A stretch of 64,000 nt of DNA from a virus (IMGVR_UViG_3300037418_003161:172420-236419), one strand, 5' to 3'; positions 9,952-39,636 are shown, numbered from the stretch's first letter. Translations and numbers: made by a program. Notes: a model not told the origin generated them from the sequence alone.

Positions 9952-12900
9952 TTATTCGTTTAATAAATCATCAAGTTCGTCAGCAATCTCATTTAGTTTT
10001 TGTCTGCCCTTGTCCAAATCGAATATGAACCCTTCTTTTTCGTTCTTCATATCCAGTAGTTTTCCCAAACGTTGTTCGCTCAAGGGTGCTGCGGGTTGGG
10101 TTTCTTCTTCTTCCGGTGGAGCTTGCTCACCTCCGGTTGCGGGAGGGGCTGCTGCTCCTGTAGGTGGCGCAGCTTCACCACCACCTGTTTCTTCCGGTGG
10201 AGCTTCTTCTGCACCTCCACCCATATCACCACCCAAGTCAGGTAGGCTCATTGAGCCGCCCCCGCCTCCACCACCACTTGCGCCTCCGGCATCGGCTGAA
10301 TCACCACCCGCTGGATTTTCACCACTGGAATAAAGTTGGTTGATTTTATTAAAGATTCCGGTTTTAATGTCTTTGGAGTTGTTGAGTTCTTCTGCAATTC
10401 CACGCTCCACTTTTTGTTGTTGAAGGTCAAGCTTGACTTCTTCATCACTCATACCCAAGAAGTATTTTTTGGCGAATGTGTGGGACACAGGTGCAATGGA
10501 TTGACCATCGCCCACCGCATCTTTATACAGCAGGATTTTCTCTTTCCATTGTTCAATCTTAAGAAGGTCAGATTGTGTGGAAGGATTGGTAAGACCCAAT
10601 GTGAAATTATCCAACTCATCTTCTAATCCAAGAAGATAAAGGTGGATGATAGCAATTTTATTGAGTTCCTGAATCAGAGATTTTTGAATACGATTGATGG
10701 TACGTGCGAAACGTATATCCATAAGCGATAGACCCTTACCTTCACCAACCACTTCTTCGAAACCCAAGAATGCTTTGGGAATACGAAGTGCAGCCAACAT
10801 CTTCTTTTGGATATACTCAATATCTGCGATTTCTCCCAAATTAGAATTAAAAATATATATACCGCATTGAATACCAAAGGTGTGTGCGTTAGAATAGAGT
10901 TCATTACCATCTACGGTAATAGTTCCGGTATCTTGTTTTTCTTCCAGCCATTCTATCGCAATAATCTTGTGATTAAAGAACTTTCTTCGTTGTGAGATTC
11001 CTTGTTCCTTATCGATATAATATCTCCATGCACGAACATTTTTGTAACCCCTACTTTCAGATTCTTTTACTAACCATTCACGATAGTTTCTAAAGCCACG
11101 TTGTTTCAACATCTTAACAACATGGTTATGCGTAAATTCAGAAAGATTGGAAAGTGGACTACTAATTTCACCATTGATTGTTTTAAACAATTTCAAAAAT
11201 TCCGGGGTATTGTTTAGAACATTTAATGTTAAATCTGCACGTCCGGTCTTCTCAAATTCACGAACGTACCATCGATAAATTTCATCGGAGAAAATGAGCG
11301 TTTGGTTTTTCAGAACCTTTTTTCTGAACTCACTATTTTTCCAATTGTTTTTTGTGCGTTCACTGTGTTGTTGTTTTCTATCGTTAGTAAAAGCTTTTGA
11401 AATCTTTTTGCCTTTTGCCTTCAGATTTTCTTCATTTTTACACCATTCCAACATTGGTTGAATGTTTTCAACGGTTGCATATTGTTTCAATCTTTCAAAG
11501 CTTTCATTGAGTTGTTCTTCATTAAGAGAATTAATGTAATTTTTTAAACCTTCGCTTTGTTTTTTACTGATTTCTTGGTGGAAATTGATATCGGATTTAC
11601 GTTTGTTGTGAAATGTTTCTTGTCCCCTTTTTAGTCTTTCATTTACAGCATTTCTAAAATTTTCGTCATTTGCATATTTTTCTGAATAGGCTTGAGAAGC
11701 AATATGTAAATTATCAGCATGATATTTTAAGTGGTCTGAATAACCCATAAAACATAAATTAGTTGGGTTATTATTAAATCGATTTACATCTTTATGGTGT
11801 ATTACACTAAACGTATTCTCCTCATTCTTTTTGTGAATATATTTCTGTACTAATTTGTGTCTGTAAAATTTAGCAACTTCTTTGTGAACCCATAACCATT
11901 TACCTTTCTCGTTATCCCAAACTTGTTTGTAATCCTTGGAATAATTATTTCTCCTATATAAAACTTCGTTTCTAAGATTTAGTGGCATAAGACTTTCACC
12001 AACAACCAAATCTTTTGCTTCTTTCTTTTCACCTAAACGTGTGAGAAACTTATGGTCGGGTGTTGCGGTCACACTTTCACCATTATCCAAAGTAATTTTA
12101 AGAACTTGCGTATTCTTTCTTGTAACCCCGGCCCAAGTAATCGGCAGAGGAATAAACTTACCCGTTTTTGGGTCACATGAGTAAACCCACAGGTTTCTAT
12201 TTCCTTCGTCCCATTCTTTGATAATATCTTTTAATTCCAATGTCCTTCCATCCAATAGGGGAATTTTGGTATCCAAAGCGATACAAGCTCCCGGCAGTGT
12301 TTCAATCGGAGAAGCCTGAGATGGGTCACGAACCGGGATAAAGAAATCTTGGTCAACCGCCATTTGGTTGTAACGAGTATCCACGTTACCGTTGCGTTGG
12401 TCAGCGATTTGGTCACGCTTAAATCTGTTGGCAACACGCTGAACATATTGTTCCACATCCGAATCATCCATATTTCCAACAAAGACCTTAAACACCCTGC
12501 GCTCCGGCGCACGACTTGTCCGGTAAATCAACATCGCATCTTCGGCCAACAAAAGCTGCTTCCATATCCTGCGGCATTTATCCAACATGGACGTGCCATA
12601 GGGAAGTTTGCGGTCATCCCCCAACAGTCGGAAGTGAGCAATCTCCCAAGGTTGGAAGTCCATGTTTTTATCTTTCCAACGGAATTTGACCTGACGTGCC
12701 GCCAAATCATCCTTGTCTTTGATTTCCACTTTCTGCACCATGTTGGCTGTGGAGTTTTTGTAGGCTTCCCCTTCCAGCCGCTCGATTTCCACGTTGGGGA
12801 GTTGGTAGCAACCAACCACCCCCTTTTCGGGGTCTATTTTTAAATATAAGAAATTATCTCCATATTTGCACATGTTCCGACCCCACATCTGTAAATTGGT

Positions 12901-13335
12901 ATTTACATCCAAGACATTGTTAAACAGGTTAGCAAGTGTATTTTTTATACGTTTTGATTCTGAAAAAATTGAAAGAATGTGTCCCTTCTCACTTGGCGTG
13001 GTGGCTTCCTCTGCATAAATGTCCAAAGCAGCAGAAATTTCCGGGGTATACTCCATTGATTCATAATCGAAATATGCCGATAAACGGGTGGTTTCATAAA
13101 CGGTTGATTTGTTATACAACTCATTATCAATCTTCACCCATTTATCCAGAAGGTATTTGGATTGTTGGAGTTCCAACTTTTTCGTGTCGTACTCCTGTTT
13201 GTTATATGTTCTTAATAATTCCTGTGCATTCAGATTGTACGTGTGTTCAGGCTCTTGGGGTTGCTGTATGGAAGCACCACCCCTCCTCAACATCTTGGTT
13301 AGCTTCTGAAGTACGGTTAAATTGTTTTCAGCCAT
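9952..13335 (-). CDS. Portal protein, T4 gp20-like, interrupted by an intein; Gly/Pro/Ala-rich C-terminal low-complexity segment
   Basis: 1127 aa. N-terminal ~350 aa and the post-insertion segment are portal-like by size and synteny. A ~473 aa insertion begins with Cys in ...SPIETLPGA/CIALDTKIPLLDG (Hint block A). Confidence 0.78.
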   Translation of the reverse strand: MAENNLTVLQKLTKMLRRGGASIQQPQEPEHTYNLNAQELLRTYNKQEYDTKKLELQQSKYLLDKWVKIDNELYNKSTVYETTRLSAYFDYESMEYTPEISAALDIYAEEATTPSEKGHILSIFSESKRIKNTLANLFNNVLDVNTNLQMWGRNMCKYGDNFLYLKIDPEKGVVGCYQLPNVEIERLEGEAYKNSTANMVQKVEIKDKDDLAARQVKFRWKDKNMDFQPWEIAHFRLLGDDRKLPYGTSMLDKCRRIWKQLLLAEDAMLIYRTSRAPERRVFKVFVGNMDDSDVEQYVQRVANRFKRDQIADQRNGNVDTRYNQMAVDQDFFIPVRDPSQASPIETLPGACIALDTKIPLLDGRTLELKDIIKEWDEGNRNLWVYSCDPKTGKFIPLPITWAGVTRKNTQVLKITLDNGESVTATPDHKFLTRLGEKKEAKDLVVGESLMPLNLRNEVLYRRNNYSKDYKQVWDNEKGKWLWVHKEVAKFYRHKLVQKYIHKKNEENTFSVIHHKDVNRFNNNPTNLCFMGYSDHLKYHADNLHIASQAYSEKYANDENFRNAVNERLKRGQETFHNKRKSDINFHQEISKKQSEGLKNYINSLNEEQLNESFERLKQYATVENIQPMLEWCKNEENLKAKGKKISKAFTNDRKQQHSERTKNNWKNSEFRKKVLKNQTLIFSDEIYRWYVREFEKTGRADLTLNVLNNTPEFLKLFKTINGEISSPLSNLSEFTHNHVVKMLKQRGFRNYREWLVKESESRGYKNVRAWRYYIDKEQGISQRRKFFNHKIIAIEWLEEKQDTGTITVDGNELYSNAHTFGIQCGIYIFNSNLGEIADIEYIQKKMLAALRIPKAFLGFEEVVGEGKGLSLMDIRFARTINRIQKSLIQELNKIAIIHLYLLGLEDELDNFTLGLTNPSTQSDLLKIEQWKEKILLYKDAVGDGQSIAPVSHTFAKKYFLGMSDEEVKLDLQQQKVERGIAEELNNSKDIKTGIFNKINQLYSSGENPAGGDSADAGGASGGGGGGGSMSLPDLGGDMGGGAEEAPPEETGGGEAAPPTGAAAPPATGGEQAPPEEEETQPAAPLSEQRLGKLLDMKNEKEGFIFDLDKGRQKLNEIADELDDLLNE
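10867..12285 (-). mobile_element. Intein (Hint domain with embedded HNH endonuclease) within the portal gene
   Basis: N-terminal splice junction Cys codon at 12283-12285 (CIALDTKIPLLDGRT). HNH motif VIHHKDVNRFNNNPTNLCFMGYSDHLKYHADN. C-terminal block ITVDGNELYSNAHTFGIQ/CG resembles Hint block G but ends in Gln (10867-10869) followed by Cys, non-canonical. Boundaries approximate. Confidence 0.6.
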
Positions 13336-19601: not shown

Positions 19602-20690
19602 TTATTTCTTTTCATTTCGAATCCCGGCTTTTGGTTTAGGATTGCTTCCGGGCTGAGGACGAAATGGAGTTTTGGGCTTAGACGGCTTTATGTCAGGCCG
19701 GGTGGTTGGTTTGGTTGTGGGTTTGGTAGGGGCAATGGCCGGGTCAGCACTATCCTGAAACTCTTTGTGTTTTCCAAAGATTTTGTCAAAAGTCATAAAG
19801 TCCGGCAGACCCTCAACACCCGCTTTTGGTTTAGGATTGCTTCCGGGCTGAGGACGAAATGGAGTTTTGGGCTTAATTGGAGCAGTATGTGGTTTGGTTT
19901 CAGGCCGTGTTTGAGGTTTGGTTGGCGCAGTGGTTGGGGCTGCGACTTGTTCTCCAAGCTTGATGCGAATCATTTCCATGATATCTTTCTTTTTTGCTAA
20001 TGATAAGAAATTATTTTCAGAAAGTCCAGTGCCCTTCTTTTTTGTCTTATCTTTGTTTTTGCAAATATCGCACTTTCCACACGTACAACCAAGTTTTTCT
20101 GCCAATTCTTTTTCATTTTTAAAAACGGGCTTGTGGAACTTACCAATGTTGCTTTCATAGACCTTATCATTGGCTTTTTTCTTGGCTTCCCGCTCTTTTT
20201 TACGGTCTTCATCAGACATCCAGTGGTCGGTATATTTGGCCGTTTGAGCGGCTTTGAATTTATTGAAGGAAGATTTTACCATCTTGTGCTTTTGAGTCAC
20301 GTTCTTGGTATCCCACCCTTCTTTGGTCTCTTCCTTTTTCTTTTTTTCTACTTCTAAACCACGTTTTTGAGCATCGGGTGTATTCCTCGGAGGCTGTCCC
20401 CCGCCAATGATTTTGGCATCGGGATTGGATTTCTTTTTTTTCTTTTTAAAAATCTCACTCATCTCCTGCTCTTTCTCCTGTTGGTCTTCCCCCTTGATTT
20501 CAATGGAATCCTTATCCGGGTCAATGTCTTTTTTTACGTCCTTCAGTTGGTCGGGGTCGTTGATAACCACATTGGTTTCAGTAACCATTTTTTGATAGAG
20601 GGAAGATAGCTGCCTGTCATTCAAAACCGATAGGGTTTTCACCGAAAACCCCTCTTTCATTAGTCCCTCAATTAGACTTTTTCTATTCAT
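19602..20690 (-). CDS. Lys/Pro-rich basic protein with an internal duplicated segment and a CxxC...CxxC motif
   Basis: 362 aa. Peptide KPKTPFRPQPGSNPKPKAG occurs twice, encoded by a ~56 bp direct repeat (19624-19680 and 19820-19875). CTCGKCDICK cluster present. Confidence 0.5.
   Translation of the reverse strand: MNRKSLIEGLMKEGFSVKTLSVLNDRQLSSLYQKMVTETNVVINDPDQLKDVKKDIDPDKDSIEIKGEDQQEKEQEMSEIFKKKKKKSNPDAKIIGGGQPPRNTPDAQKRGLEVEKKKKEETKEGWDTKNVTQKHKMVKSSFNKFKAAQTAKYTDHWMSDEDRKKEREAKKKANDKVYESNIGKFHKPVFKNEKELAEKLGCTCGKCDICKNKDKTKKKGTGLSENNFLSLAKKKDIMEMIRIKLGEQVAAPTTAPTKPQTRPETKPHTAPIKPKTPFRPQPGSNPKPKAGVEGLPDFMTFDKIFGKHKEFQDSADPAIAPTKPTTKPTTRPDIKPSKPKTPFRPQPGSNPKPKAGIRNEKK
19624..19875. repeat. 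Two near-identical ~56 bp direct repeats inside the Lys/Pro-rich protein gene
   Basis: ccg(g)cttttggtttaggattgcttccgggctgaggacgaaatggagttttgggctta at 19624-19680 and 19820-19875. Confidence 0.8.
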
Positions 20691-21079
20691 TTTATGTTAG
20701 TCATTTTTATTTTTAAATCTCGTTCGCCAAGTTTGGTTTTGACCTCTTCTAAGGTTTCTCCATACTTAAACACTAAGCGTTTATTGGTGTCACTATCACC
20801 GCTTTCGTAACTTTCCCAACCAAGGGCAATCACACCATCAACAGCATCTAAAACAGAAAAGTAGTCGGAGTTTTGTACCAGTTCCAATTTTAGTTCTGTG
20901 TCACAAAGTGTTCCAACTACTTTTATAAATCTCATTTCCGGGGGAGTGGGTCTGCCGCTTGCAGGGGTCAAGTCCCAATCCTCACCAACCACATCGGTTA
21001 CTGTATCATTAAAAATGAATTCATATATTCTTTCATTCTTATAATCCGGGCCGAGTTCATTAACGTAAATCAGTTTCAT
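20687..21079 (-). CDS. Hypothetical protein
   Basis: 130 aa; 4-nt overlap with the downstream gene. Confidence 0.45.
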   Translation of the reverse strand: MKLIYVNELGPDYKNERIYEFIFNDTVTDVVGEDWDLTPASGRPTPPEMRFIKVVGTLCDTELKLELVQNSDYFSVLDAVDGVIALGWESYESGDSDTNKRLVFKYGETLEEVKTKLGERDLKIKMTNIK

Positions 21080-22149
21080 TATCCTTTAAGAATTCTTTGA
21101 AGACGTTGAAAATTTTCATAAATGTCATCATAGTCTTCAGTTTCTTTCTTCTTCTCATTGCCTTCTTCTTTCTTTTTCTTCCTATTAGGAACATCCCAAT
21201 CGGTATCAATTTCTTCATCACCACTTGGCTCTATATCATCATCAAAATCGAAGTAGAAACCTTCACCCATTTCTTGGTCGTCATCAGAAGGTGGTGGCAC
21301 ATCTTCATCATCACTACCATAATCCTCATCACCACCTTCGGTGTCGGCAGGAACGTCTTCGTCGTCACCACCTACATCACCAAAATCTCCGGTATCGTCC
21401 ACGGAATCCAACGGCTCTGAATTGTCGTATTCAGAATCTTCGAAACGGGAAGCAATTTCTTCCTTATCTGAATCATCCAGTTTGGACAAATCAATGGCAG
21501 AAAGAATTGAGTTAATAACATATTTGTAATCATCACTCTTCAGTTCATCTTCATGTTGACGCAACCGTTGACCCAACTTGCCAGTTAATTTTTGAATGGC
21601 TTTCATATGTTCAGGAGCATCAGGATTAACACCCTGTACGTCTTCACCACCCTCATCGCCTACAGGGGGTGCATCGTCCGTTGGAGCAGCATCATCATCT
21701 GCGGGAACATCGCTATCCACATCGTCATCCGAAGGGGCAGCATCAGCAGCCGGGGGCGCATCATTCATGGAAGGAGCGGCATCCGGGTCTTCATCAACAG
21801 AAGGTTTATCTAAAACAAATTTCTTCTCCTGCTCATTCAAGGGTTTGGCAATAAGTTCCATGCGCTTGTAGGCTTCAGCATAAGAGTTGAAACGGTTTTT
21901 ATTTTTCATTTTCAGGCCCCCGATATAATCAAGGGTATTTTCTGTTAGTCCGAACTTAACATAGTAACCATCTTTTTCCTTAACCACACCATAGAACCCA
22001 TCTACGGATTCTTTCACCAAGTGGGTTGTATTGGTTGTATTGGTTGTTTGTTTTTTTGGTGCTTCGTTGTAACGAGCAATTTCCATTATTCTTCTAATTT
22101 TGTCGTCTAATGGTAATTTTTCGCTACCAAGTGGTCTTAAGTCTGCCAT
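21079..22149 (-). CDS. Highly acidic low-complexity protein
   Basis: 356 aa, long D/E/P/A-rich stretches; ATGA overlap with the next gene. Confidence 0.5.
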   Translation of the reverse strand: MADLRPLGSEKLPLDDKIRRIMEIARYNEAPKKQTTNTTNTTHLVKESVDGFYGVVKEKDGYYVKFGLTENTLDYIGGLKMKNKNRFNSYAEAYKRMELIAKPLNEQEKKFVLDKPSVDEDPDAAPSMNDAPPAADAAPSDDDVDSDVPADDDAAPTDDAPPVGDEGGEDVQGVNPDAPEHMKAIQKLTGKLGQRLRQHEDELKSDDYKYVINSILSAIDLSKLDDSDKEEIASRFEDSEYDNSEPLDSVDDTGDFGDVGGDDEDVPADTEGGDEDYGSDDEDVPPPSDDDQEMGEGFYFDFDDDIEPSGDEEIDTDWDVPNRKKKKEEGNEKKKETEDYDDIYENFQRLQRILKG

Positions 22150-22179
22150 AATTATAAGTTATTTTCCTATAAATATTTG

Positions 22180-22920
22180 CTATTGTTCCAAAGACAATTG
22201 CTTATCAAGAATTTCGTTCTTTAAATCCAATAGCTTTTTTATGTATTCGTTTCTGCGTAAATACTTAAAGACCAAGTTTTCGTAGGAAAATTCCCCACCT
22301 TCGTCCAATCCGCATTGCCGAAACTTCTTGAGGCGTTCCCGCACTCTTTCCACTCTTGCCAAAATCCCCTCATCGTTTTTGTGTTTAATGAGTTCATCAA
22401 TTACATCCATCCACGAATCCACCTTGTCTTTGATTTGCTTTTTATCGATTTTTACCCGGTGTTTTTCCGGCTCAATAATCCACTTGTTGTTGAGAACTGA
22501 ATAGACCCCGGAAGAATCGTGTTTCTCATGTATGTCCTGTACATAGATTTCACAATCATACCCTTTGATTTTAATGGCATGTTGGGAATTCCATATCACC
22601 TTTTTGGCATCAAAGAATTCTTTTAAAAGAGTTAGGTCGTGTTTGGATTCAGCAAAATCGATTACCACATGCAAGTCCACATCCGAGTACTTTGACCAGT
22701 TGTAATTGGCAAGACTGCCAGTTAGGATAATGTCGTGGATAAAAAATTTCACTCCCATGAATTCAATGAACTTATCGGCCACATGCAGCAGGGCGTTGCG
22801 AACATCTTTTTTGAGAACGTGGGTATCTCCCTCGGTATCAAAGATTTCGGGGTTCATTTCACTTTTTACCTTGAAGGAATCCAAAATGGTATCTTCATTA
22901 ATCTGTTGGAGTGTTATCAT
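22180..22920 (-). CDS. Nucleotidyltransferase-fold protein (pol-beta superfamily, KNTase-like size)
   Basis: 246 aa. LTGSLANYNWSKYSDVDLHVVIDF matches the minimal NTase signature hG[GS]-x(9-13)-DhD; a later acidic residue sits in KGYDCEIYVQD. Confidence 0.55.
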   Translation of the reverse strand: MITLQQINEDTILDSFKVKSEMNPEIFDTEGDTHVLKKDVRNALLHVADKFIEFMGVKFFIHDIILTGSLANYNWSKYSDVDLHVVIDFAESKHDLTLLKEFFDAKKVIWNSQHAIKIKGYDCEIYVQDIHEKHDSSGVYSVLNNKWIIEPEKHRVKIDKKQIKDKVDSWMDVIDELIKHKNDEGILARVERVRERLKKFRQCGLDEGGEFSYENLVFKYLRRNEYIKKLLDLKNEILDKQLSLEQ

Positions 22921-23167
22921 CTTGCTCTTTGATTTCTTTAAAAGAATATTTTTTTATTATCTCAGACGAGAAATACTTTCCTTGGGATTCTGCCATTCTG
23001 AATTTGGTAAAAATCTCCCACGGAACATCCACGTATTCGTATTTGCGGTTGTTCTTAAATGTCACCGTTAACGCCTTGGACATGGTATCGTAAGACGCTT
23101 CTTTCAGATTGGAGGATTCCACAATTACAGAAATAACTGTTCCAACAATTTTTTCAGAAATTATCAT
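22898..23167 (-). CDS. Hypothetical protein
   Basis: 89 aa ORF. Confidence 0.35.
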   Translation of the reverse strand: MIISEKIVGTVISVIVESSNLKEASYDTMSKALTVTFKNNRKYEYVDVPWEIFTKFRMAESQGKYFSSEIIKKYSFKEIKEQDDNTPTD

Positions 23168-23344
23168 ATCAATAAATATTGATAGGACTTGACTTTGTAA
23201 AAAATTTTTTATATAGTTATATATAACCCTATGAATTATATAATACTAATACTATTAATAATCATCTGTATAAGATTAAATTATATTAAAGGGAAGAATA
23301 AATATTAATTGGTTAAACCTAATACTTTATTTATCTTTGTTTTT

Positions 23345-23611
23345 ATGAAAAAGAATAAGATTAAAATTAGCAATACACAAAAAGAAATTATTACTCTTAT
23401 GCGGGAAGGATGGGAGATGGCTAAGTCAAATACTATGAATGCCCGTTCATGGATACAAAAAAATGGTATTGGAAAAGGAGGAGAAACTAAAAATTTAACT
23501 GTAAGTACTTTTATCTCCTTGTGTGAAAAAGGAATTATTGAACAAAAAGAATATGGATTTCCATCTTCGACATTTAAATTAACTGAATTGGGTATGACAA
23601 TTGAGTTGTAA
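23345..23611 (+). CDS. Hypothetical protein
   Basis: ATG at 23345 directly follows the conserved promoter motif (TTATTTATCTTTGTTTTT); ORF-track start at 23309 is upstream inside the motif. Followed by terminator 23639-23664. Confidence 0.4.
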   Translation: MKKNKIKISNTQKEIITLMREGWEMAKSNTMNARSWIQKNGIGKGGETKNLTVSTFISLCEKGIIEQKEYGFPSSTFKLTELGMTIEL

Positions 23612-23638
23612 ATAATTGTTGGACGCTTATATATTGAA

Positions 23639-23664
23639 AAACCCCGGAACGTTCCGGGGTTTTG
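23639..23664. terminator. Terminator of the same family
   Basis: AAACCCCGGAACGTTCCGGGGTTTTG between convergent genes. Confidence 0.6.
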
Positions 23665-23665
23665 C

Positions 23666-24058
23666 TTATTTAATGATGATTTTGTTTCTTTTCTCTTTGA
23701 GTGGGACATCAATGAAAAGAATTCCATTTCTCAATTCTGCTTCAATGTTTTCTGTATCAATATCTCCCCCCACCAAAATACTTTTACTAAGACTTTTATG
23801 GATAAGACCATCAAAGGTGTTGCCGTCTGTTTTTTCACCCCGTATGGTGATGTATGAACCTTCTGATAGGATGGTCAATTCATTTTTTTCAAAGCCAACG
23901 GCAAGTACCTGTAACTGGTAGCCATTATCTCTTTTTTCAAGGTTGTAATCTTTTGCTTGTGTCAGGGGCTTCAGGAGTTCAGTTCCCCAATGGTTCCAAT
24001 CGTTGTTGATGCATTTGTTGATGTACCCAAACGTGTTGTCAAAATTGCTAATTTTCAT
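23666..24058 (-). CDS. Small heat-shock protein (Hsp20/alpha-crystallin family)
   Basis: 130 aa. LAVGFEKNELTI...ITIRGEK...NGILFIDVPLKEK resembles the alpha-crystallin domain and the conserved GILTI.LPK-type C-terminal strand. Confidence 0.72.
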   Translation of the reverse strand: MKISNFDNTFGYINKCINNDWNHWGTELLKPLTQAKDYNLEKRDNGYQLQVLAVGFEKNELTILSEGSYITIRGEKTDGNTFDGLIHKSLSKSILVGGDIDTENIEAELRNGILFIDVPLKEKRNKIIIK

Positions 24059-24199
24059 AGGATATAAATTGTTTTAACTTTGTTTTACAAATTAAATACC
24101 ACAGCAAGATATTCCGACAAATTGTCATTGTAAATAAAATTTTGTCATGGGTGTTGACTTCAAGAATTTTTTTTCTTATTGTTTTGAAAACTTCACCTT

Positions 24200-26227
24200 A
24201 TGCCCGAATTTGATTTTGAAGACAAAGGGGATTCAAAAGGCCCTCAGAAAACTAAAGTAAAAAATTCTCCCACTCCCGTATTGGACAATTTCTCAAGGGA
24301 TTTAATCCGTTTGGCTGAACAAGGGAAATTAGACCCGGTAATTGGTCGGGATAAAGAAATTAACCGTATTGCCCAAATTCTTTCTCGAAGAAAAAAAAAC
24401 AATCCTATTATTTTGGGAGACCCCGGCATTGGAAAAACCGCAATTGTAGAAGGTTTGGCGATGAAAATCTTCCAAGGGGATTGTCCCAAAAATCTGCTGG
24501 AAAAACGCATTGTGGCTCTTGACCTGACAGCGGTGGTGGCCGGGACAAAATACCGGGGCCAGTTCGAAGAACGCATGAAAGCCATTTTGCAGGAACTCAA
24601 TGAAGTGGACAATGTGATTGTCTTCATTGATGAAATCCACACCATTTTGGGTACGGGTAACGCCTCCGGTTCATTGGACGCTTCCAATATCATGAAACCC
24701 GCATTGGCAAGGGGAGAAATCCAATGCATCGGTGCAACCACCTTGGATGAATATAGAGAAAATATTGAAAAGGATGGGGCTTTGGAAAGACGTTTTTTAA
24801 AGGTCATGGTAGATGCCCCAAGCAAGGAAGAAACGCTTCAGATTCTTCACATGCTGAAGGATAAGTATGAAAACTTCCACAAGGTTAGCTATACCGATGA
24901 AGCCCTGCAAGCCACGGTGGTATTGGCCGACCGCTACATCACCGATAAGGAGTTCCCGGACAAGGCATTTGACATCATTGATGAAGTGGGGGCGAAAAAA
25001 CAAATCAACACCAAATTTCCCAAAGAAATTGAAGACCTGAAAATGGAACTTCAGGAAATCAAGGATAGGAAGTTGGAGGTGGTGAAAAGCCAGAAATATG
25101 AAGAAGCGGCCCAACTGCGTGACCAAGAAAAGAAGGTTAAAGAGCGGCTGCAAGCTGAAAAAGACCGTTGGGAAAATGAACAAAAAGCCAACCGTTTACC
25201 TGTAACAGAAGATGACATTTACACCATTATTTCAGAAATTACCAAAATCCCGGTAGCCCGGATGAACAAGGATGAACAAAAATCCCTGCTACACTTGGAA
25301 GGTGATATGAAGGCTGAAGTAATTGGACAGGACGAGGCGGTGAATAAAATTGCCAAAGCCATCCGCAGAAACCGGGTGGGTATCAAAGACCATAACCGAC
25401 CCATTGGCTCGTTCATCTTTTTGGGGTCAACGGGGGTTGGTAAAACCCATATTGCCCGGACTCTCGCCAAGCTGAATTTTGGGTCGCCCGATGCCATGAT
25501 TCGGGTGGACATGAGTGAATACATGGAGAAACATGCGGTCTCCAAAATGATTGGTTCACCACCCGGTTATGTGGGTCACGATGAAGGTGGTCAGTTAACC
25601 GAACAAGTTAAAAACAAGCCCTATTCGGTTATCCTATTTGATGAGATTGAAAAAGCCCACCGGGACACTTTCAACATTCTGTTGCAAGTTCTGGACGAAG
25701 GTCATCTGACGGATTCCAGAGGGCGCAAGGTGAATTTTAAAAACACCATCATCATCATGACTTCCAATGTGGGAGCAAGAAAGGTGGAAGACTTTGGTAA
25801 CGGCATCGGATTTCAAAGCCAAGCCAAATTGGGACAGAGCAAGGAAATTGCCAAAACCATCATCAACAAGGAACTGAAAAATAAATTCGCCCCTGAATTT
25901 TTGAACCGGGTGGACGACATTGTGATGTTCAATTCTCTTTCTGAAGATAACATTAAGCAGATTGTAACCATTGAACTCAATAAGCTGAACAAACGCCTTA
26001 AAGAGAAGAATTACAACATCCATATGGATGATTCCGTGACAACCTATATTGCCAAAAATGGGTATGATGCCAAGTTTGGCGCACGTCCCATCAAACGTGC
26101 CATTCAGGATACCATTGAAGATTATTTGTCAGAAGAAATTCTAAAGGACAATATTAAAGAAGGTGTTGGGTACAACCTATCCATATCCGTAGAAGGTGAA
26201 GTAAAAATCAAAAAAGCCGGGAAATAA
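24200..26227 (+). CDS. ClpB/ClpC-like AAA+ chaperone ATPase lacking the N-terminal domain
   Basis: 675 aa. NBD1 Walker A GDPGIGKTAIVEGLA, Walker B VIVFIDEIH. Coiled-coil middle region (KEIEDLKMELQEIKDRK...QLRDQEKKVKERLQ). NBD2 Walker A LGSTGVGKTHIARTLA, Walker B ILFDEIEKAH, sensor TIIIMTSN, and the Clp C-terminal ARPIKRAIQ motif. The protein starts directly at QGKLDPVIGRDKEI (start of NBD1). Confidence 0.9.
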   Translation: MPEFDFEDKGDSKGPQKTKVKNSPTPVLDNFSRDLIRLAEQGKLDPVIGRDKEINRIAQILSRRKKNNPIILGDPGIGKTAIVEGLAMKIFQGDCPKNLLEKRIVALDLTAVVAGTKYRGQFEERMKAILQELNEVDNVIVFIDEIHTILGTGNASGSLDASNIMKPALARGEIQCIGATTLDEYRENIEKDGALERRFLKVMVDAPSKEETLQILHMLKDKYENFHKVSYTDEALQATVVLADRYITDKEFPDKAFDIIDEVGAKKQINTKFPKEIEDLKMELQEIKDRKLEVVKSQKYEEAAQLRDQEKKVKERLQAEKDRWENEQKANRLPVTEDDIYTIISEITKIPVARMNKDEQKSLLHLEGDMKAEVIGQDEAVNKIAKAIRRNRVGIKDHNRPIGSFIFLGSTGVGKTHIARTLAKLNFGSPDAMIRVDMSEYMEKHAVSKMIGSPPGYVGHDEGGQLTEQVKNKPYSVILFDEIEKAHRDTFNILLQVLDEGHLTDSRGRKVNFKNTIIIMTSNVGARKVEDFGNGIGFQSQAKLGQSKEIAKTIINKELKNKFAPEFLNRVDDIVMFNSLSEDNIKQIVTIELNKLNKRLKEKNYNIHMDDSVTTYIAKNGYDAKFGARPIKRAIQDTIEDYLSEEILKDNIKEGVGYNLSISVEGEVKIKKAGK

Positions 26228-26241
26228 CCCGGCTTTTTTTA
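26216..26241. terminator. Terminator hairpin after the ClpB-like gene
   Basis: AGCCGGG-AAATAA-CCCGGCT then T7. Confidence 0.6.
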
Positions 26242-26505
26242 ATTGATTAACCAATTCTCCATTTCAGTTGGATTGAAATAGTCCGGTTTTTGTAGTTTGT
26301 GTTTGTCACGGTTGGTAAAATAAGGGAGATTTTCACTATTCAGAAACGCCTTGATGGTATCCACACTTCGATTCAACTCTCTTTGCATTTGTTCAAGGGT
26401 GGCTGATTTGTGCATGTCCCTCATTTTTTGTTTTTCGGATTGGGAAAGTTTAGAAAGGTCAGCAGCATTGCCTTTCTTGGGTTGCGGTTTACACTGTGTT
26501 TCCAT
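26239..26505 (-). CDS. Hypothetical protein
   Basis: 88 aa ORF. Confidence 0.4.
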   Translation of the reverse strand: METQCKPQPKKGNAADLSKLSQSEKQKMRDMHKSATLEQMQRELNRSVDTIKAFLNSENLPYFTNRDKHKLQKPDYFNPTEMENWLIN

Positions 26506-26517
26506 GTATAATTGAAT

Positions 26518-27579
26518 TTAATTAAGGAACAGACTAGGGTCTCCATCCTCCGCATCAATTTCCTCATCAATCATCCGTTGGAGTTCGGGTGGGAGTTTAC
26601 CGTATTTTTCCCGGATGTACTCTCGCATTTCTTTTTTCCATTTCTGACTATTCTTTTGCCATTCTTTTCTTCGCTTTTCTTCTTCGGCCACATAATCGAA
26701 GAAGTAGTCATACTTCTGATATCCCAAATTATTAATAAGGGCCGTACCAACAGTAACGGTGTTTTCCACATCTTCTACATCCACGTATTCGGTATCTGAA
26801 TGCATGTTGTAGTACCCACAGGAAAGATTCAAACAGGCATGGTCAAACTTTTTCTTAATTTGACTGATATCAGTATATGGGTGTGATTGGTAGTCGTATT
26901 CACCGAACTGCCCAAGTGTGGCGTCCACGATTTCAAAAAAACGGCTGTTTCTATCGAATAGGCGCACAAAAGAACAGACTTCAGTTACCAAGGCATTGCC
27001 GGGGGCATCAAATTGAATGGTGTAACCCACATTGTTAAAAAAATTGGGGTCGGCTTCTCGGCTACCATGGCAACCAGTTTCCTCGCTGACAAAAAAGGCG
27101 GCTTTCAAATTATCGAAGACTTCCAACAGTCGCAAACAGGTATAGACACCACATTTATCGTCACCCCCGATTCCTGAAGGTCGGCCCCGTTCATCAACAC
27201 CAGTTAAAAACAAGCGGTCTTCCGTATCATTAAAGGGAAGGTGGCCGTAGGTTGGGCCTCTTCTGCCCATTCTTTCCACCACAAACATTGGTTTGATGTT
27301 GTGTACAGTATCGGTATGAGCAATGACGCATGGAAATACCTCAGCTTCTCCCTTGGTCACATATACGTTATTTTTATGGTCGAGGTAGAATGGATAACCC
27401 TTTTCGGTAAAGTAGTTGGTTAAATACTCAACCATCAAACCTTCCCGGTAGGTTTTGGTTTTAACAGATAAAACCTCTTTTAATAAATCTAAATCAGATT
27501 GTAACATACAACAAACATAAAACAAATTTTTGAGATAATCAACTATTAACGTTTTTTGATATAAACCCGCATCCACCAA
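26518..27579 (-). CDS. M42/M20-family metallopeptidase-like protein
   Basis: 353 aa. Metal-ligand-like motifs in the order typical of M20/M42 peptidases: VIAHTDTV, GIGGDDKCGV, VSEETGCHG, YYNMHSDTEY. Confidence 0.55.
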   Translation of the reverse strand: MVDAGLYQKTLIVDYLKNLFYVCCMLQSDLDLLKEVLSVKTKTYREGLMVEYLTNYFTEKGYPFYLDHKNNVYVTKGEAEVFPCVIAHTDTVHNIKPMFVVERMGRRGPTYGHLPFNDTEDRLFLTGVDERGRPSGIGGDDKCGVYTCLRLLEVFDNLKAAFFVSEETGCHGSREADPNFFNNVGYTIQFDAPGNALVTEVCSFVRLFDRNSRFFEIVDATLGQFGEYDYQSHPYTDISQIKKKFDHACLNLSCGYYNMHSDTEYVDVEDVENTVTVGTALINNLGYQKYDYFFDYVAEEEKRRKEWQKNSQKWKKEMREYIREKYGKLPPELQRMIDEEIDAEDGDPSLFLN

Positions 27580-30123: not shown

Positions 30124-30195
30124 TGCCCTGTGGTGTAACGGCAAGCATGTAACACTCTGAATGTTACGGAACAAGTTCGAATCTTGTCAGGGCGA
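30124..30195 (+). tRNA. tRNA-Gln (anticodon CTG)
   Basis: Hand-folded cloverleaf: acceptor TGCCCTG/CAGGGCG, anticodon stem TAACA/TGTTA, loop CTCTGAA, T-arm ACAAG-TTCGAAT-CTTGT. Confidence 0.7.
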
Positions 30196-30200
30196 CACAA

Positions 30201-30272
30201 TCCCATGTGGTGTAACGCTAACATCCCACCCTTTGAAGGTGCGAGTTTCAAGTTCGAGTCTTGACATGGGAA
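30201..30272 (+). tRNA. tRNA-Gln (anticodon TTG)
   Basis: Acceptor TCCCATG/CATGGGA (7 bp), anticodon loop CTTTGAA on a 4-bp stem plus one C-C mismatch, T-arm TCAAG-TTCGAGT-CTTGA. Confidence 0.6.
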
Positions 30273-30282
30273 CAAAAAAAAT

Positions 30283-30368
30283 GGTGGATTACTCAAGCGG
30301 TTAAGAGAGCGGTTTGCTAAACCGTACAGGGTTAAAATCCTGCGTGAGTTCGATTCTCACATCCACCG
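30283..30368 (+). tRNA. tRNA-Ser (anticodon GCT), class II
   Basis: Acceptor GGTGGAT/ATCCACC, D-arm CTC...GAG with long loop, anticodon stem GCGGT/ACCGT, loop TTGCTAA, long variable arm CAGGG...CCTG, T-arm GTGAG-TTCGATT-CTCAC. Confidence 0.7.
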
Positions 30369-30373
30369 CATAC

Positions 30374-30444
30374 GTAGGTTTGGTGTAACGGTAGCATGAC
30401 GCTCTCCAAAAGCGTTGGCGGGAGTTCGAATCTCTCAATCTGCG
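30374..30444 (+). tRNA. tRNA-Trp (anticodon CCA)
   Basis: Anticodon stem ACGCT/AGCGT, loop CTCCAAA, T-arm GGGAG-TTCGAAT-CTCTC; acceptor GTAGGTT/AATCTGC with two G-U pairs. Confidence 0.65.
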
Positions 30445-30448
30445 CAAT

Positions 30449-30706
30449 ATGAAAGGACAATTTGAAGAAATTATCAAGAAGCTCAAACTCAGAAGTGAGT
30501 TGATGAGCAAACGATATTCAAACATTGTTACTCCAAGCGGAATTAAGATTATACGGATTGTTCAGAGTCTTATTGACGAAGATGTTGTTCTAATTCATAT
30601 TAAATGGAGTTACAAAGACGGTATTCCCAATTTTGAGGAATTGCAGAAATACCAAAACGAATGTTTGAAATATTGGAATGTGAAGACTGAAATAAGACGA
30701 GTATAA
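30449..30706 (+). CDS. Hypothetical protein
   Basis: 85 aa ORF directly after the tRNA cluster. Confidence 0.35.
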   Translation: MKGQFEEIIKKLKLRSELMSKRYSNIVTPSGIKIIRIVQSLIDEDVVLIHIKWSYKDGIPNFEELQKYQNECLKYWNVKTEIRRV

Positions 30707-30743
30707 TACATTGGGGATGTAGCTCAAAGGAAGAGCGGCACTT

Positions 30744-30815
30744 TGTTAAAGTGAAGGTTGAGATATCGTAATTCTCCATCCCCGCAAACCCGAAACTTTT
30801 TCCCTATAGGGCAGT
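30744..30815 (+). tRNA. tRNA-Asn-like (anticodon GTT) with atypical T-arm; possible pseudogene
   Basis: Perfect acceptor GGGGATG/CATCCCC, D-arm GCTC/GAGC, anticodon loop TTGTTAA on a 4-bp stem. T-loop reads ATCGTAA and the T-stem has a T-T mismatch. Confidence 0.45.
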
Positions 30816-30869
30816 ATAGGGATAGATGCTGCCACATCGAAAAGAGGGAGTAGGGAAAGTTATTAACAT

Positions 30870-30941
30870 GGTGTATGAAGCTTTAAGGTGAAGCACTTGG
30901 TTGTGGGCCAAGGGAAGTCGGTTCGATACCGTCCTTACACC
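30870..30941 (+). tRNA. tRNA-His (anticodon GTG) with G-1
   Basis: Extra 5' G at 30870 opposite discriminator C (His hallmark). Acceptor GTGTATG/CTTACAC, anticodon stem CTTGG/CCAAG, loop TTGTGGG, T-loop TTCGATA. Confidence 0.7.
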
Positions 30942-30953
30942 CAAATTATTTTT

Positions 30954-31241
30954 ATGAATAAGGAACAGAAAATTAGATTGGCTGACATGCTTTTGGAATT
31001 TGTAAGCAACAATCAGGAAGACAGGGTGAATCTGCCCCGGATGGTTGGAACACTTACAAAGGCCCAAGGTCTGAACGGCTTTAAACGTGCTGAAATTGGA
31101 ACACCCGTTTTTGATATTGGTGACAAATATATGATAATGATTGAAAGCCTTGATGGTAATAGAAATGTTGAGGTAACTTATTATAAAGATACATTGAAAC
31201 CTGTCATTGAGTTTGATGGTGAAGCAAAAGTTATTTCATAA
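30954..31241 (+). CDS. Hypothetical protein
   Basis: ATG 30954 (MNKEQKIRLADML...) just after tRNA-His; ORF-track start 30888 lies inside the tRNA. Confidence 0.35.
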   Translation: MNKEQKIRLADMLLEFVSNNQEDRVNLPRMVGTLTKAQGLNGFKRAEIGTPVFDIGDKYMIMIESLDGNRNVEVTYYKDTLKPVIEFDGEAKVIS

Positions 31242-31278
31242 AAGGTAGACTTTCAACTTTGGAAGAACTTAATAATAA

Positions 31279-31357
31279 TGGCGTGTATAGAGCCATCCTG
31301 ATGAGATGGATATTCTTAGCGGTATTGAAAACGTGGGTTCGAATCCCACCACGCCAA
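31279..31357 (+). tRNA. Non-canonical tRNA-like gene (hairpin loop CTGATGA would give anticodon GAT, Ile)
   Basis: Perfect acceptor TGGCGTG/CACGCCA and T-arm GTGGG-TTCGAAT-CCCAC. The body has only one clean hairpin (CCATC-CTGATGA-GATGG) plus 5 nt before and 23 nt after it; no standard D-arm. Confidence 0.35.
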
Positions 31358-31371
31358 CCAAGGGAACAGGT

Positions 31372-31396
31372 AGTGGTTCGACTCCACTCAGGCATA
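31372..31396 (+). ncRNA. Isolated tRNA 3'-half-like element (T-arm AGTGG-TTCGACT-CCACT plus 7 nt)
   Basis: Canonical T-arm with no matching 5' acceptor half within 90 nt upstream. Confidence 0.3.
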
Positions 31397-31444
31397 GATT
31401 CTACGTTTGTAGCATTTGATGGTAGTGCAGTTCCCGCCTTTTAT

Positions 31445-31526
31445 GGCCCCGTAACAGCACCGTCTTCGAAACGGTACGCATTGTAATGGAAGGAAGATGT
31501 GAGTTCGACCCTCACCGGGGCTTCCA
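31445..31526 (+). tRNA. Non-canonical tRNA-like gene with encoded CCA (hairpin loop CTTCGAA would give anticodon TCG, Arg)
   Basis: Acceptor GGCCCCG/CGGGGCT, discriminator T, then CCA. T-arm GTGAG-TTCGACC-CTCAC. Body architecture mirrors 31279-31357: 5 nt, then hairpin ACCGT-CTTCGAA-ACGGT, then 23 nt. Confidence 0.35.
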
Positions 31527-31531
31527 AAGTT

Positions 31532-31556
31532 GTAGGTTCGAGTCCTACTCAGTCTG
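31532..31556 (+). ncRNA. Isolated tRNA 3'-half-like element (T-arm GTAGG-TTCGAGT-CCTAC plus 7 nt)
   Basis: Second T-arm-only element, immediately after the preceding tRNA-like gene and before a T-run. Confidence 0.3.
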
Positions 31557-31580
31557 CGATTTTTTATTTATCTTTGTTCC

Positions 31581-31940
31581 ATGAAAACCATTGTTGAACA
31601 AATGATTGAGGCCGGGTATAGGAAATTTACACCATCCTCATATTATCACGCCAAAGAAGCGTATCAGGCTCGCATCAGGGATGAAGTTGGAACTCGGTAT
31701 TTTATAACTTGTTACATTTACAATTTCAGTGATTTAGCACAGGAGCCACAAGAGGATAGTTACAGCTTTGAGGTTCAGTATGATAGTCACGGAAATCAAA
31801 CATTTGATGTGAGAAGGGGTGGGTGGTTTGGGCCGAATAAGTGGAACCATCCATATTTAACACTCCGGGAAATTGAAGATTTTTTCGGTCTCATTTGGGA
31901 AACAACTGGACGATTGTATTATGAAAAAGATGAATATTAA
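31581..31940 (+). CDS. Hypothetical protein
   Basis: 119 aa; ATG follows the promoter motif TTATTTATCTTTGTTCC. Confidence 0.45.
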   Translation: MKTIVEQMIEAGYRKFTPSSYYHAKEAYQARIRDEVGTRYFITCYIYNFSDLAQEPQEDSYSFEVQYDSHGNQTFDVRRGGWFGPNKWNHPYLTLREIEDFFGLIWETTGRLYYEKDEY

Positions 31941-31950
31941 ATTTATAAAG

Positions 31951-32035
31951 GGGTAGTTGGTCGAGTGGTCGATGGCGGCAGTCTGCAAAACTGTTGGGAG
32001 CAATCCCCGCACAGGTTCGAATCCTGTACTACCCT
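31951..32035 (+). tRNA. tRNA with Cys anticodon GCA and U73 but a class II (long variable arm) body
   Basis: Perfect acceptor GGGTAGT/ACTACCC, Ser-like D-arm GTC-GAGTGGTCGAT-GGC, anticodon stem GCAGT/ACTGT, loop CTGCAAA. 16-nt variable arm GGGA-GCAA-TCCC (GNRA loop). T-arm ACAGG-TTCGAAT-CCTGT, discriminator T. Confidence 0.6.
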
Positions 32036-32036
32036 C

Positions 32037-38207: not shown

Positions 38208-39164
38208 ATGTCAATTACATCCATCGTTGTTCTGGCAATAAGCGGAATAGTGGGCCTTGCGCTTATCGTTAGCTTATTTCAATCATTCTTCACTGTAAAA
38301 CAGGGAACTGTAGCTGTTGTTACACGGCTTGGCAAGTTTCATAAAATTTGTACTACCGGGCTGAATTTCAAAGTCCCTTATATTGATAGCCTCCTTGGGG
38401 TTATTTCCTTACAAAACAGGTCGGCCTCGGTTGCGTTTCAGTCCATAACTTCTGACCAAGCCAACGTGTATTTCAACGCTATGTTGTTGTATTCAGCCAC
38501 AAATAGTGACGAGGATACCATTAAAAACATCGCCTTCAAATTCCGCACTGAACAGGAGTTCGCCTCTACTCTGCAAAGAACCATTGAAGGAGCGGTACGG
38601 GCATACGTGGCAACCAAAAAACAAGCGGAGGTGCTTACCCTCAGACGAGAAATTGTTGACCATGTAAAGGCCGAATTGGATGGTACACTACACAGTTGGG
38701 GCTATCATCTGTCGGATTTACAAATCAATGATATCACATTTGACAAGGCTATCATGGATTCGATGAGCAAAGTAGTAGCCTCCAATAATCTAAAAGCCGC
38801 CGCAGAAAATGAAGGTCAGGCGTTGTATATTCAAAAGACCAAGGCTGCGGAAGCGGAAGGGCAAGCCATTAAAATTCAAGCCGAAGCCGAGGCTACTGCC
38901 GCCCAACTACGGGGACAAGGGGTTGCCAAGTTCCGGGAAGAAGTGGCGAAGGGCCTAACCCAATCGGCTGAAATGTTGCATTCCGCTAATATGGATACCA
39001 ACGTTATCATGTTCAGCATGTGGACGGAAGCCATCAAAAACTTTGCGGAATACGGTAAGGGGAATGTTATCTTTTTGGATGGTTCAGCCCAAGGGATGGA
39101 CAATACCCTAAAGCAAATCCAAGCCATGATACAATCAAAACAGGCCGACTATGTTAATAACTGA
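38208..39164 (+). CDS. SPFH/band-7 (stomatin/prohibitin/HflKC-like) membrane protein
   Basis: 318 aa. N-terminal TM helix, FTVKQGTVAVVTRLGKF core, and an Ala/Glu-rich coiled-coil tail (AEAEGQAIKIQAEAEATAAQLRGQG) typical of the family. Confidence 0.82.
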   Translation: MSITSIVVLAISGIVGLALIVSLFQSFFTVKQGTVAVVTRLGKFHKICTTGLNFKVPYIDSLLGVISLQNRSASVAFQSITSDQANVYFNAMLLYSATNSDEDTIKNIAFKFRTEQEFASTLQRTIEGAVRAYVATKKQAEVLTLRREIVDHVKAELDGTLHSWGYHLSDLQINDITFDKAIMDSMSKVVASNNLKAAAENEGQALYIQKTKAAEAEGQAIKIQAEAEATAAQLRGQGVAKFREEVAKGLTQSAEMLHSANMDTNVIMFSMWTEAIKNFAEYGKGNVIFLDGSAQGMDNTLKQIQAMIQSKQADYVNN

Positions 39165-39636
39165 TGATTTTGTTTTCTTCTATAAATCATTCTATTCGCA
39201 ATGGAAAATTGCGCCAGTAAGAATTGATGGAAGAACCTACAACTGCTCTGAACAATACATGATGCATAGGAAAGCCACTTTGTTTGAGGATTGGGAAACC
39301 GCAGATAAAATCATGAAAGCAGAACACCCAAGAGACCATCAGTCTCTTGGGCGTACTGTTAAAAATTTTAATCAGGAAGTATGGAACGCCAATGCAAGGG
39401 AAATTGTGTATCAGGCAAACCTAGCCAAGTATATGCAGCACGAAGATATGCGAAAAGAAATGCTGGCAACCGGGAATAGAAAATTTGTTGAAGCTTCCCC
39501 CACTGATATCATATGGGGTGTTGGTCTTGGTGAAAAAGACCCTTTAATCGTTGACCCCAAAAATTGGAGAGGAACAAACTGGTTGGGACAAGCATTGGAT
39601 AGAGTGAAAGCAACTTTGTTACAGACCAAGAATTAA
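39151..39636 (+). CDS. NADAR (YbiA/DUF1768) domain protein
   Basis: 161 aa. FFYKSFYSQW...IDGRTYNCSEQYMMHRKA...KFVEASPTDIIWGVGLG matches the YbiA/NADAR hallmarks (F.Y.S..SNF, SEQ(Y/F), E.SP.D..WG.G). Confidence 0.78.
   Translation: MLITDDFVFFYKSFYSQWKIAPVRIDGRTYNCSEQYMMHRKATLFEDWETADKIMKAEHPRDHQSLGRTVKNFNQEVWNANAREIVYQANLAKYMQHEDMRKEMLATGNRKFVEASPTDIIWGVGLGEKDPLIVDPKNWRGTNWLGQALDRVKATLLQTKN

Follow-up and report, generated by a model that had tools for sequence, protein, structure and literature searches.

We describe here a divergent gene pair in a 64,000-nucleotide stretch of viral DNA (IMGVR_UViG_3300037418_003161:172420-236419; hereafter the window). The pair consists of a small heat-shock protein (sHSP) of the Hsp20 family and a two-ring AAA+ unfoldase which, by its sequence and its predicted structure, is of the ClpC type and not of the ClpB type, and which lacks the N-terminal domain (N-domain) of cellular ClpC while retaining the tripeptide characteristic of ClpP-docking loops at the homologous position. 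The two open reading frames (ORFs) encode 130 amino acids (positions 23666..24058, minus strand) and 675 amino acids (24200..26227, plus strand), with 141 bp (24059-24199) between them. With a probability of roughly 55%, we interpret the pair as a phage-controlled, adaptor-independent ClpC that uses the ClpP of the host and has a co-regulated chaperone partner. A sequence-only reading of the window had already recognized both ORFs and their divergent arrangement, the Hsp20 identity of the smaller product, the two rings, the middle domain (M-domain) and the missing N-domain of the larger one, and the phage context, all of which hold. It had also taken the ATPase for a ClpB-like disaggregase in which a ClpP-docking loop was not obvious; these two points have to be revised.

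In a phmmer search against all PDB sequences the best matches of the ATPase were ClpC of Staphylococcus aureus (E 1e-233) and, next, ClpC of Bacillus subtilis (E 3e-225). Each of them aligns in one stretch (for S. aureus, query residues 13-656 with ClpC residues 150-790), whereas chains of ClpB and Hsp104 align in two stretches only and break at the M-domain. Pfam domains of the ATPase comprise AAA (PF00004) in the first ring (D1), AAA_lid_9, UVR, AAA_2 (PF07724, E 7e-65) in the second ring (D2) and ClpB_D2-small (E 8e-27). The protein does not reach the NCBIfam equivalog thresholds for ClpB (TIGR03346, 838 vs 1232 bits; NF008118, 705 vs 1417 bits) or for ClpA (745 vs 993 bits), nor those for ClpG and ClpK (679 and 643 bits vs 1900), whose models are matched only from position 228-260 onwards, their N-terminal region being absent. 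An AlphaFold2 model (mean predicted local distance difference test score, pLDDT, 74.7) suggests a disordered N-terminal tail of 21-24 residues (residues 1-21 in the model) followed by D1, a short M-domain, D2 and the small D2 subdomain; its top Foldseek matches were ClpC-ClpP and MecA/ClpC/ClpP complexes.

The M-domain (25022..25189, plus strand; residues 275-330) has a length of 56 residues and is predicted to form a two-helix coiled-coil hairpin with a UVR motif, the modelled helices spanning residues 275-297 and 300-330 at a pLDDT of 80-88. The UVR family (PF02151) is matched at residues 283-315 with an E value of 3e-4 and 20.9 bits, just below the cut-off of 21.5. The alignment with the M-domain of ClpC is nearly gapless, with one single-residue gap, and the long four-helix M-domain of the ClpB type (about 120 amino acids) is not present. 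At the tip of the hairpin (SQKY300EEAAQLRD), Y300 aligns with F436 of S. aureus ClpC; this position is aromatic throughout the phage family, being a nearly invariant tyrosine and otherwise a phenylalanine. The single uninterrupted alignment with ClpC, the short two-helix M-domain, the ClpB score below the cut-off and the putative ClpP loop described below thus argue for a ClpC-type enzyme. The sequence-only reading had linked a protease-coupled unfoldase to a docking loop combined with the absence of a middle domain; the loop is present, and a middle domain is present as well, in the short form of ClpC.

The loop (GNGIGFQSQ; 25796..25822, plus strand; residues 533-541) carries the tripeptide IGF at residues 536-538 (nucleotides 25805-25813). 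It aligns with the segment NKYVGFNVQ of B. subtilis ClpC, which we take to be the ClpP-binding VGF loop of that protein, and lies within a flexible, low-confidence loop of the model (residues 530-546). Equivalent ClpP loops are IGF in ClpX, IGL in ClpA and LGF in ClpC1. ClpB is without such a loop and binds ClpP only if the ClpA loop is grafted onto it, as in the BAP chimera, which was present among the PDB matches of the phage ATPase. We followed the motif through 201 family members, that is the window protein, the proteins of 80 related viral loci and 120 database proteins, which share 57-100% identity. The tripeptide reads VGF in 93 of them, LGF in 54, IGF in 46, MGF in 7 and VGY in one, so that [LIVM]GF is kept in 200 of the 201. 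In an alignment of 32 sequences D531, F532, G533, G535, G537 and F538 are invariant (DFGxGxGF), and cellular ClpC of Bacteroidota has the same loop (DFGxGVGF). The elements of a threading motor are conserved in the same set: the pore loops KYRG and GYVG occur in 200 and 189 members, respectively, and the Walker A and B motifs, which read GDPGIGKT and FIDEIH in D1 and GSTGVGKT and LFDEIEKAH in D2, are kept in both rings. This is the pattern that an active translocase docking on ClpP would show.

When the window, which covers 64 kb of the ~236-kb genome, was searched by tblastn with the ClpP proteins of E. coli and B. subtilis, no ClpP gene was detected (best E 1.4), and phmmer detected none within 6 kb on either side of the ATPase gene in the 80 related loci. 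Because the phage region encodes no ClpP, the ATPase most likely assembles on the ClpP of the host.

The loss of the N-domain is evident from several observations. The ATPase ORF starts 24 residues before TPVLDNFSRDL, the opening of D1; there is an in-frame stop just upstream (the stop-to-stop ORF begins at 24188), and the sHSP gene, which runs on the opposite strand, takes up the DNA further upstream. Alignments with ClpC open at ClpC residue ~150-156, directly after the N-domain and linker, and Pfam detected no Clp_N domain in the ATPase. The same truncation is found throughout the family, whose members have ~22-25 residues before TPxLD, compared with 156-195 residues in 67 of 68 evaluable cellular genes, the remaining one being cut by a contig end. 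All 120 homologues among the matches listed are 660-686 amino acids long, and relatives occur on at least 599 contigs of IMG/VR. The possibility that the N-domain is supplied in trans was rejected: phmmer searches of the window and the 80 loci with the N-domain of B. subtilis ClpC and with the N-terminal extensions of three viral proteins detected no stand-alone N-domain and matched only the full-length genes from which these extensions derive (L072:5539-8019, L074:5527-8016 and L080:695-3220). These three genes encode viral full-length ClpC (N-domain match E 6e-11 to 6.5e-7); they are without sHSP, Hsp70 or UVR partners and fall outside the clade of N-less sequences.

The 78 N-less sequences from phages group together, to the exclusion of all others, in a neighbour-joining tree. 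Their nearest cellular relatives are ClpC proteins of Bacteroidota (Maribacter, Flavobacterium, Crocinitomicaceae, Chitinophagaceae, Saprospiraceae, Pedobacter) with 56-59% identity, followed by those of Bacillota. The simplest history would be that a Bacteroidota-type clpC gene was captured and that its N-domain was then lost once.

The product of the smaller gene (23666..24058, minus strand) is, as judged from its profile matches, a genuine Hsp20. It passes the Pfam HSP20 model (PF00011, E 2e-12, 47.6 bits vs a cut-off of 20.8) and matches the phage Hsp20 family phrog_432 (E 1.4e-7). Solved sHSPs align with it (E 2e-5) over the whole alpha-crystallin domain (residues ~40-125), including the strand AELRNGILFIDVP, in which the sHSP motif A-x-x-x-N-G-[VI]-L is found; the C-terminal I-x-I tail is represented by KIIIK. 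By analogy with other sHSPs, the protein may act as a holdase. Its sequence is only 21-34% identical to those of the sHSPs found at the same place in related loci, pointing to fast divergence, and a word-indexed homologue search with it returned only the protein itself. VENG[IV]L..LP is nonetheless conserved among these sHSPs, and 48 of the 49 have [IVL]x[IVL] at the C-terminus.

Comparison of the related loci showed that the position divergent to the ATPase gene, located upstream of it at ~5350-5950 in L001-L080, is a slot that is filled in different ways. Among the 76 N-less loci with upstream DNA (window included), Hsp20 occupies the slot in 49, two of which have a tandem Hsp70 in addition, whereas six contain a full-length Hsp70/DnaK alone (PF00012, E 1.5e-251) and nine a protein of 120-151 amino acids with two UVR motifs (E 1e-14 to 1e-20); no recognisable partner is seen in 12. 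Examples of slot genes are L001:3849-5726, L053:5456-5818 and L002:5368-5844, and in one locus (L071) an ArdC-N/M78-like gene takes the place of a chaperone-type partner. The pairing is thus unlikely to be a chance arrangement. The double-UVR proteins repeat the motif Q-[DE]-[FY]-E-x-A-[IV]-x-[LY]-R-D, which is the tip motif of the phage ClpC M-domain (SQKYEEAAQLRD), and are candidate M-domain-directed regulators. They were ruled out as McsA orthologues, being without CxxC zinc-finger motifs. Slot ORFs of loci without an sHSP were also considered as cryptic sHSPs and rejected: the best E value with a relaxed profile was 0.08, and Pfam assigned them to UVR or Hsp70. A search for an M-domain signature specific to each partner class gave no independent signal, as the differences follow the ATPase subclades.

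The 141-bp spacer (24059..24199) would serve as a control region common to both genes. It contains the sequence GACAAATTGTC (24116..24126), an operator-like palindrome of the form GACA-N3-TGTC, which is the only exact copy in the window. The orthologous spacers carry between one and three copies of the palindrome and its variants TTAGACA and TTGACA, located around -100 and -70. In a set of 74 loci, the 200 nucleotides preceding the ATPase gene contain the exact palindrome 49 times, or 3.3 per kb, compared with 6 occurrences (0.006 per kb) in all other sequence (~957 kb), an enrichment of ~500-fold. It is absent from the 300 nucleotides upstream of 67 cellular clpC genes, and inheritance of an operator from the host clpC gene was thereby rejected; its single copy in 64 kb likewise spoke against a general promoter element of the phage. 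Because it is enriched at the ATPase spacers and absent upstream of cellular clpC, the palindrome is specific for this phage module. A sigma-70-like match (TTGACT-17-TATTGT; 24154..24182, plus strand) ends 18 nucleotides upstream of the ATPase start and corresponds weakly to the consensus; the region contains 13 such sites vs 8.1 +/- 2.8 expected, which is not significant. An Rfam scan of positions 23200-26700 revealed no known RNA thermometer or leader and gave only sub-threshold matches on two terminator-like hairpins.

These hairpins mark the edges of the module. On the left, just beyond the stop codon of the sHSP gene, lies a G+C-rich palindromic hairpin (AAAACCCCGGAACGTTCCGGGGTTTT; 23638..23663) flanked by A- and T-runs, and on the right the hairpin AAAAAAGCCGGG-AAATAA-CCCGGCTTTTTT (26210..26239) overlaps the stop codon of the ATPase gene and resembles a bidirectional terminator. 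Together with the palindrome and the occupancy of the slot, the bracketing terminators strengthen the proposal, made in the sequence-only reading, that the two genes form a protein-quality-control module.

Just beyond the terminators the module is flanked by two ORFs of 88 amino acids each (23355-23611, plus strand; 26239-26505, minus strand), neither of which has a relative in the 80 sister loci; the product of the latter (containing ATLEQMQRELNRSVDTIKAFL) resembles a helix-turn-helix protein by eye. Next to it, and convergent with the ATPase gene, an aminopeptidase of the M20/M42 clan resembling di- and tripeptidases is encoded (26518..27579, minus strand). This classification is based on PHROG, Pfam and source names, relatives being named tripeptide aminopeptidase or FrvX, and a search against PDB sequences gave no match. 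The peptidase has a Lys/Glu-rich C-terminal extension that is lacking in most of its relatives of ~270 amino acids, and it lies directly downstream in 21 of the 80 related loci. It is possibly an accessory gene, whose product would fit a conversion of ClpP products to amino acids.

The window encodes a large terminase of the T4 type, a T4-like portal protein, a major head protein and a head protease of the gp21 type. The sequence-only reading suggested that the module may serve capsid assembly or host takeover; as the phage has its own head protease, a role of the ATPase in scaffold removal is not required. No nucleotide match of the window to deposited phages was found, and terminases of isolates share no more than 28% identity with its own, a Flavobacterium phage being among the best of these weak matches. 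The 80 viral loci represent one syntenic lineage. A lineage with similar features, the moraphages, has been described recently; these are large T4-related phages of aquatic origin, for which Flavobacteriia are the predicted hosts. They encode DnaK, DnaJ and HSP20, and their core genes include a Clp ATPase (labelled ClpA in the table) and a putative peptidase (PMC12619734, 2025). The resemblance is qualitative and comprises T4-like structural genes, the Clp ATPase, the peptidase, Hsp20/DnaK and Bacteroidota signals; the window is probably a member of the moraphages or of a sister lineage.

The host of the phage is probably a member of the Bacteroidota, because the nearest cellular homologues of the ATPase are found there, because many sister spacers contain TAnnTTTG boxes, and because of the likeness to moraphages. 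We take TAnnTTTG to be the -7 element of Bacteroidota. The lack of an obvious Shine-Dalgarno sequence at the ATPase start codon and the weak terminase match to a Flavobacterium phage also fit such a host.

The proposed mechanism is as follows. A phage lineage would have captured ClpC from Bacteroidota and shed the domain that binds adaptors and represses the enzyme, while keeping what is needed for threading into ClpP: the two ATPase rings with their pore loops, a short regulatory M-domain whose tip is aromatic, and the [LIV]-G-F loop. During infection the N-less ClpC would dock on the host ClpP via its IGF loops, and the choice of substrates of the resulting protease would no longer be set by host adaptors, the M-domain being the sole gate. 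Hsp20 might keep non-native proteins extractable and either feed or gate the unfoldase, and both genes would be driven from the one 141-bp control region with its palindrome, insulated by the terminators. The coupling of the two proteins might be physical or functional, and the purpose of the system might be turnover of host proteins, recycling of amino acids or quality control of phage proteins.

Several points weigh against this interpretation. Docking on ClpP is deduced from a conserved tripeptide at a homologous position, and the host assignment from nearest homologues, from TAnnTTTG boxes in sister loci and from the likeness to moraphages; the spacer of the window itself contains no clear box, and window-wide the motif is not enriched (72 found vs 77.7 expected). 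The partner type tracks the ATPase subclades, which indicates that the association is partly due to shared ancestry, and the slot of 12 N-less loci has no recognisable partner at all. In addition, the Hsp70 encoded in some sister slots is the classical partner of ClpB, and refolding without proteolysis is conceivable.

A more far-reaching version of the adaptor-independent, ClpP-coupled ClpC, which we put forward only tentatively, regards the ATPase as a device for hijacking host ClpP and the slot gene as an interchangeable gate-opener or substrate feeder (Hsp20, Hsp70 or double-UVR protein), all placed under one operator-controlled spacer. In this version the loss of the N-domain would release the motor both from the adaptors of the host and from the helical resting state, with the M-domain left as its only gate. 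The sHSP would in this case be a dedicated delivery factor or adaptor for ClpC-ClpP, and the double-UVR proteins would constitute a new class of M-domain-directed ClpC regulators.

The strongest alternative, although in our view an unlikely one, is that the ATPase works without ClpP, as a disaggregase of the ClpB kind: it would extract proteins to which the sHSP is bound and refold them, and the two genes would form a self-contained pair that aids folding and assembly of phage proteins. The combination of an sHSP with an Hsp100 protein is the classical pairing for disaggregation, as in IbpA/B with ClpB-DnaK, and MecA-ClpC can disaggregate and refold proteins without ClpP. Sister loci with Hsp70, or with Hsp70 and Hsp20, in the slot would fit this function, as would the location of the module next to morphogenesis genes. 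However, the architecture is that of ClpC rather than ClpB, and the [LIVM]GF tripeptide is kept in all but one family member down to 57% identity, which would be difficult to understand if ClpP played no part, because the stand-alone disaggregases ClpB, ClpL and ClpG/K are not known to have the ClpP loop. Moreover, neither a DnaJ or J-domain protein nor an Hsp70 is encoded in the window. Disaggregase and ClpP-coupled activities could also coexist in the same protein.

It is improbable that the N-less ClpC serves as a decoy that ties up host ClpP, for example in rods of ring-dimers and ClpP, and thereby blocks host processes that depend on ClpP, such as the degradation of antitoxins (abortive infection) or the turnover of phage proteins. 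An engineered ClpC without N-domain indeed makes silent rods with ClpP via head-to-head contacts of its M-domains (PMC12583610), the aromatic tip residue Y300 is kept in the phage family, and antitoxin-like genes for counter-defence have been reported from the related moraphages (PMC12619734). However, a decoy would not need the threading elements, which are strongly conserved (KYRG in 200/201, GYVG in 189/201, Walker B in both rings), and the chaperone partners would have no obvious role. The least credible explanation, that the adjacency is incidental and the sHSP an independent auxiliary gene at the end of the leftward gene block, like hsp20 of T4-like cyanophages, would agree with the poor conservation of the sHSP (its 21-34% identity and self-only search result), with the empty slots, with the other genes found in some of them and with the partner type following subclades, but leaves unexplained why an occupied slot contains almost only proteins of chaperone systems (Hsp20, Hsp70 and mimics of the M-domain tip), why the palindrome is specific for this position and terminators isolate the pair from the flanking blocks, and why slot sHSPs occur in more than one ATPase subclade, as the window and one further locus (L044) have an sHSP besides the main sHSP group although their ATPases group with the Hsp70/UVR subclade.

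The leftward block itself (20687-23167, minus strand) comprises genes for a KTSC-domain protein (22898-23167), a nucleotidyltransferase-like protein (22180-22920), a very acidic protein of 356 amino acids (21079-22149) and a protein of 130 amino acids (20687-21079). Genes of this block are kept in 70-77 of the 80 related loci, those for the KTSC-domain, nucleotidyltransferase-like and acidic proteins in 74-77. The portal (gp20) gene (9952-13335, minus strand; 1127 amino acids) is split by an intein (PF14890, E 1.1e-9), and its HNH endonuclease signal is weak and sub-threshold (phrog_7545, E 1.5e-6; Pfam HNH_3, 16.6 bits vs a cut-off of 24.8). Genes that seem to serve metabolism or interaction with the host form a rightward block (38208-48857, plus strand), which encodes among others a lipoprotein-like product (38208-39164), an ABC-transporter ATPase-like protein (44401-45210) and a protein of the adenylosuccinate synthetase family (46535-47656, plus strand; 373 amino acids; PF00709, E 1.3e-42). 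The latter matches phrog_1211, whose label is that of a PurZ-type enzyme; it may be PurZ of the 2-aminoadenine (Z-base) pathway or a divergent PurA, its best solved matches being bacterial PurA at only ~1e-20. As is typical of large phages, the window contains 17 tRNA genes, which are arranged in three clusters (30124-32036, 51029-52313 and 56054-56328) and correspond to Gln (two), Ser, Trp, Asn, His, Cys, Leu (three), Tyr, Val, Pro, Phe and Lys (three).

Members of the ATPase family are labelled ClpC by the Joint Genome Institute (JGI), and the moraphage study names the Clp ATPase as a core gene. There the Clp gene appears in a table only, and its subfamily, N-domain loss, ClpP loop, partner slot and operator are not analysed (PMC12619734). 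In open-access papers and bioRxiv we found no description of a phage ClpC-type unfoldase, of a natural ClpC without N-domain or of the partner slot. The present assignment corrects both the label ClpA in the moraphage table and the ClpB-like class of the sequence-only reading to ClpC-type, and it illustrates that an sHSP gene beside an Hsp100 gene is in itself no proof of ClpB-type disaggregation.

The system for which the sHSP and the Hsp100 motor would at first suggest a counterpart is ClpB-IbpA/IbpB-DnaK, and the Hsp70 genes in sister slots add to this likeness. ClpB, however, has a long four-helix M-domain, an N-domain and no ClpP loop, and the phage ATPase is the opposite in each of these respects. 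A comparable organization is found in the ClpG/ClpK elements, in which sHSP genes lie on mobile DNA beside an Hsp100 gene whose product has a short, ClpC-like M-domain. ClpG and ClpK act as disaggregases on their own, bind aggregates through extended N-terminal domains and are not known to have a ClpP loop. A direct encounter between an sHSP and ClpC-ClpP is known from Mycobacterium tuberculosis, whose Hsp20 is degraded by ClpC1P1P2 in vitro (PMC12913811), which indicates that sHSPs and ClpC-ClpP can meet directly. In M. tuberculosis the Hsp20 is itself the substrate, the ClpC1 is of full length and, unlike in the phage, the two genes do not form a divergent pair.

The phage ATPase resembles ClpC of Bacillota and Bacteroidota in its two AAA+ rings, in the UVR-type M-domain with an aromatic tip, in the [LIV]GF loop, in a continuous alignment with 51-59% identity and in its fold. 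It differs by the lack of the ~150-residue N-domain, which in cellular ClpC binds MecA, McsB-phosphoarginine and substrates and stabilises the resting state, and by the location of its gene, which adjoins a chaperone gene instead of being part of a ctsR-mcsAB-type operon. ClpC-ClpP, a target of antibiotics, is a protease of central importance that is kept under tight repression, and the phage system bears on the control of an N-less ClpC, on the redirection of host ClpP by phages and on sHSP, Hsp70 and M-domain mimics as partners of ClpC. The closest known counterpart is an engineered one. In S. aureus ClpC without N-domain the helical resting state is destabilised, and the protein forms planar hexamers that bind ClpP without MecA; it is still proteolytically silent because the M-domain tips (F436) pair head to head, giving rods of ring-dimers and ClpP, whereas the additional exchange F436A renders it hyperactive, less selective and toxic (PMC12583610, EMBO J 2025). 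The layout of the engineered protein, consisting of a linker stub, D1, the M-domain and D2 with its loop, is the same as that of the phage protein, whose N-terminal tail aligns with the linker. The former is a laboratory truncation, however, whereas the phage family is natural, widespread and monophyletic and has co-encoded candidate partners for the M-domain. It represents a natural counterpart of the engineered enzyme; in nature the truncation seems to have arisen a single time, within a phage lineage of which aquatic metagenomes contain many members.

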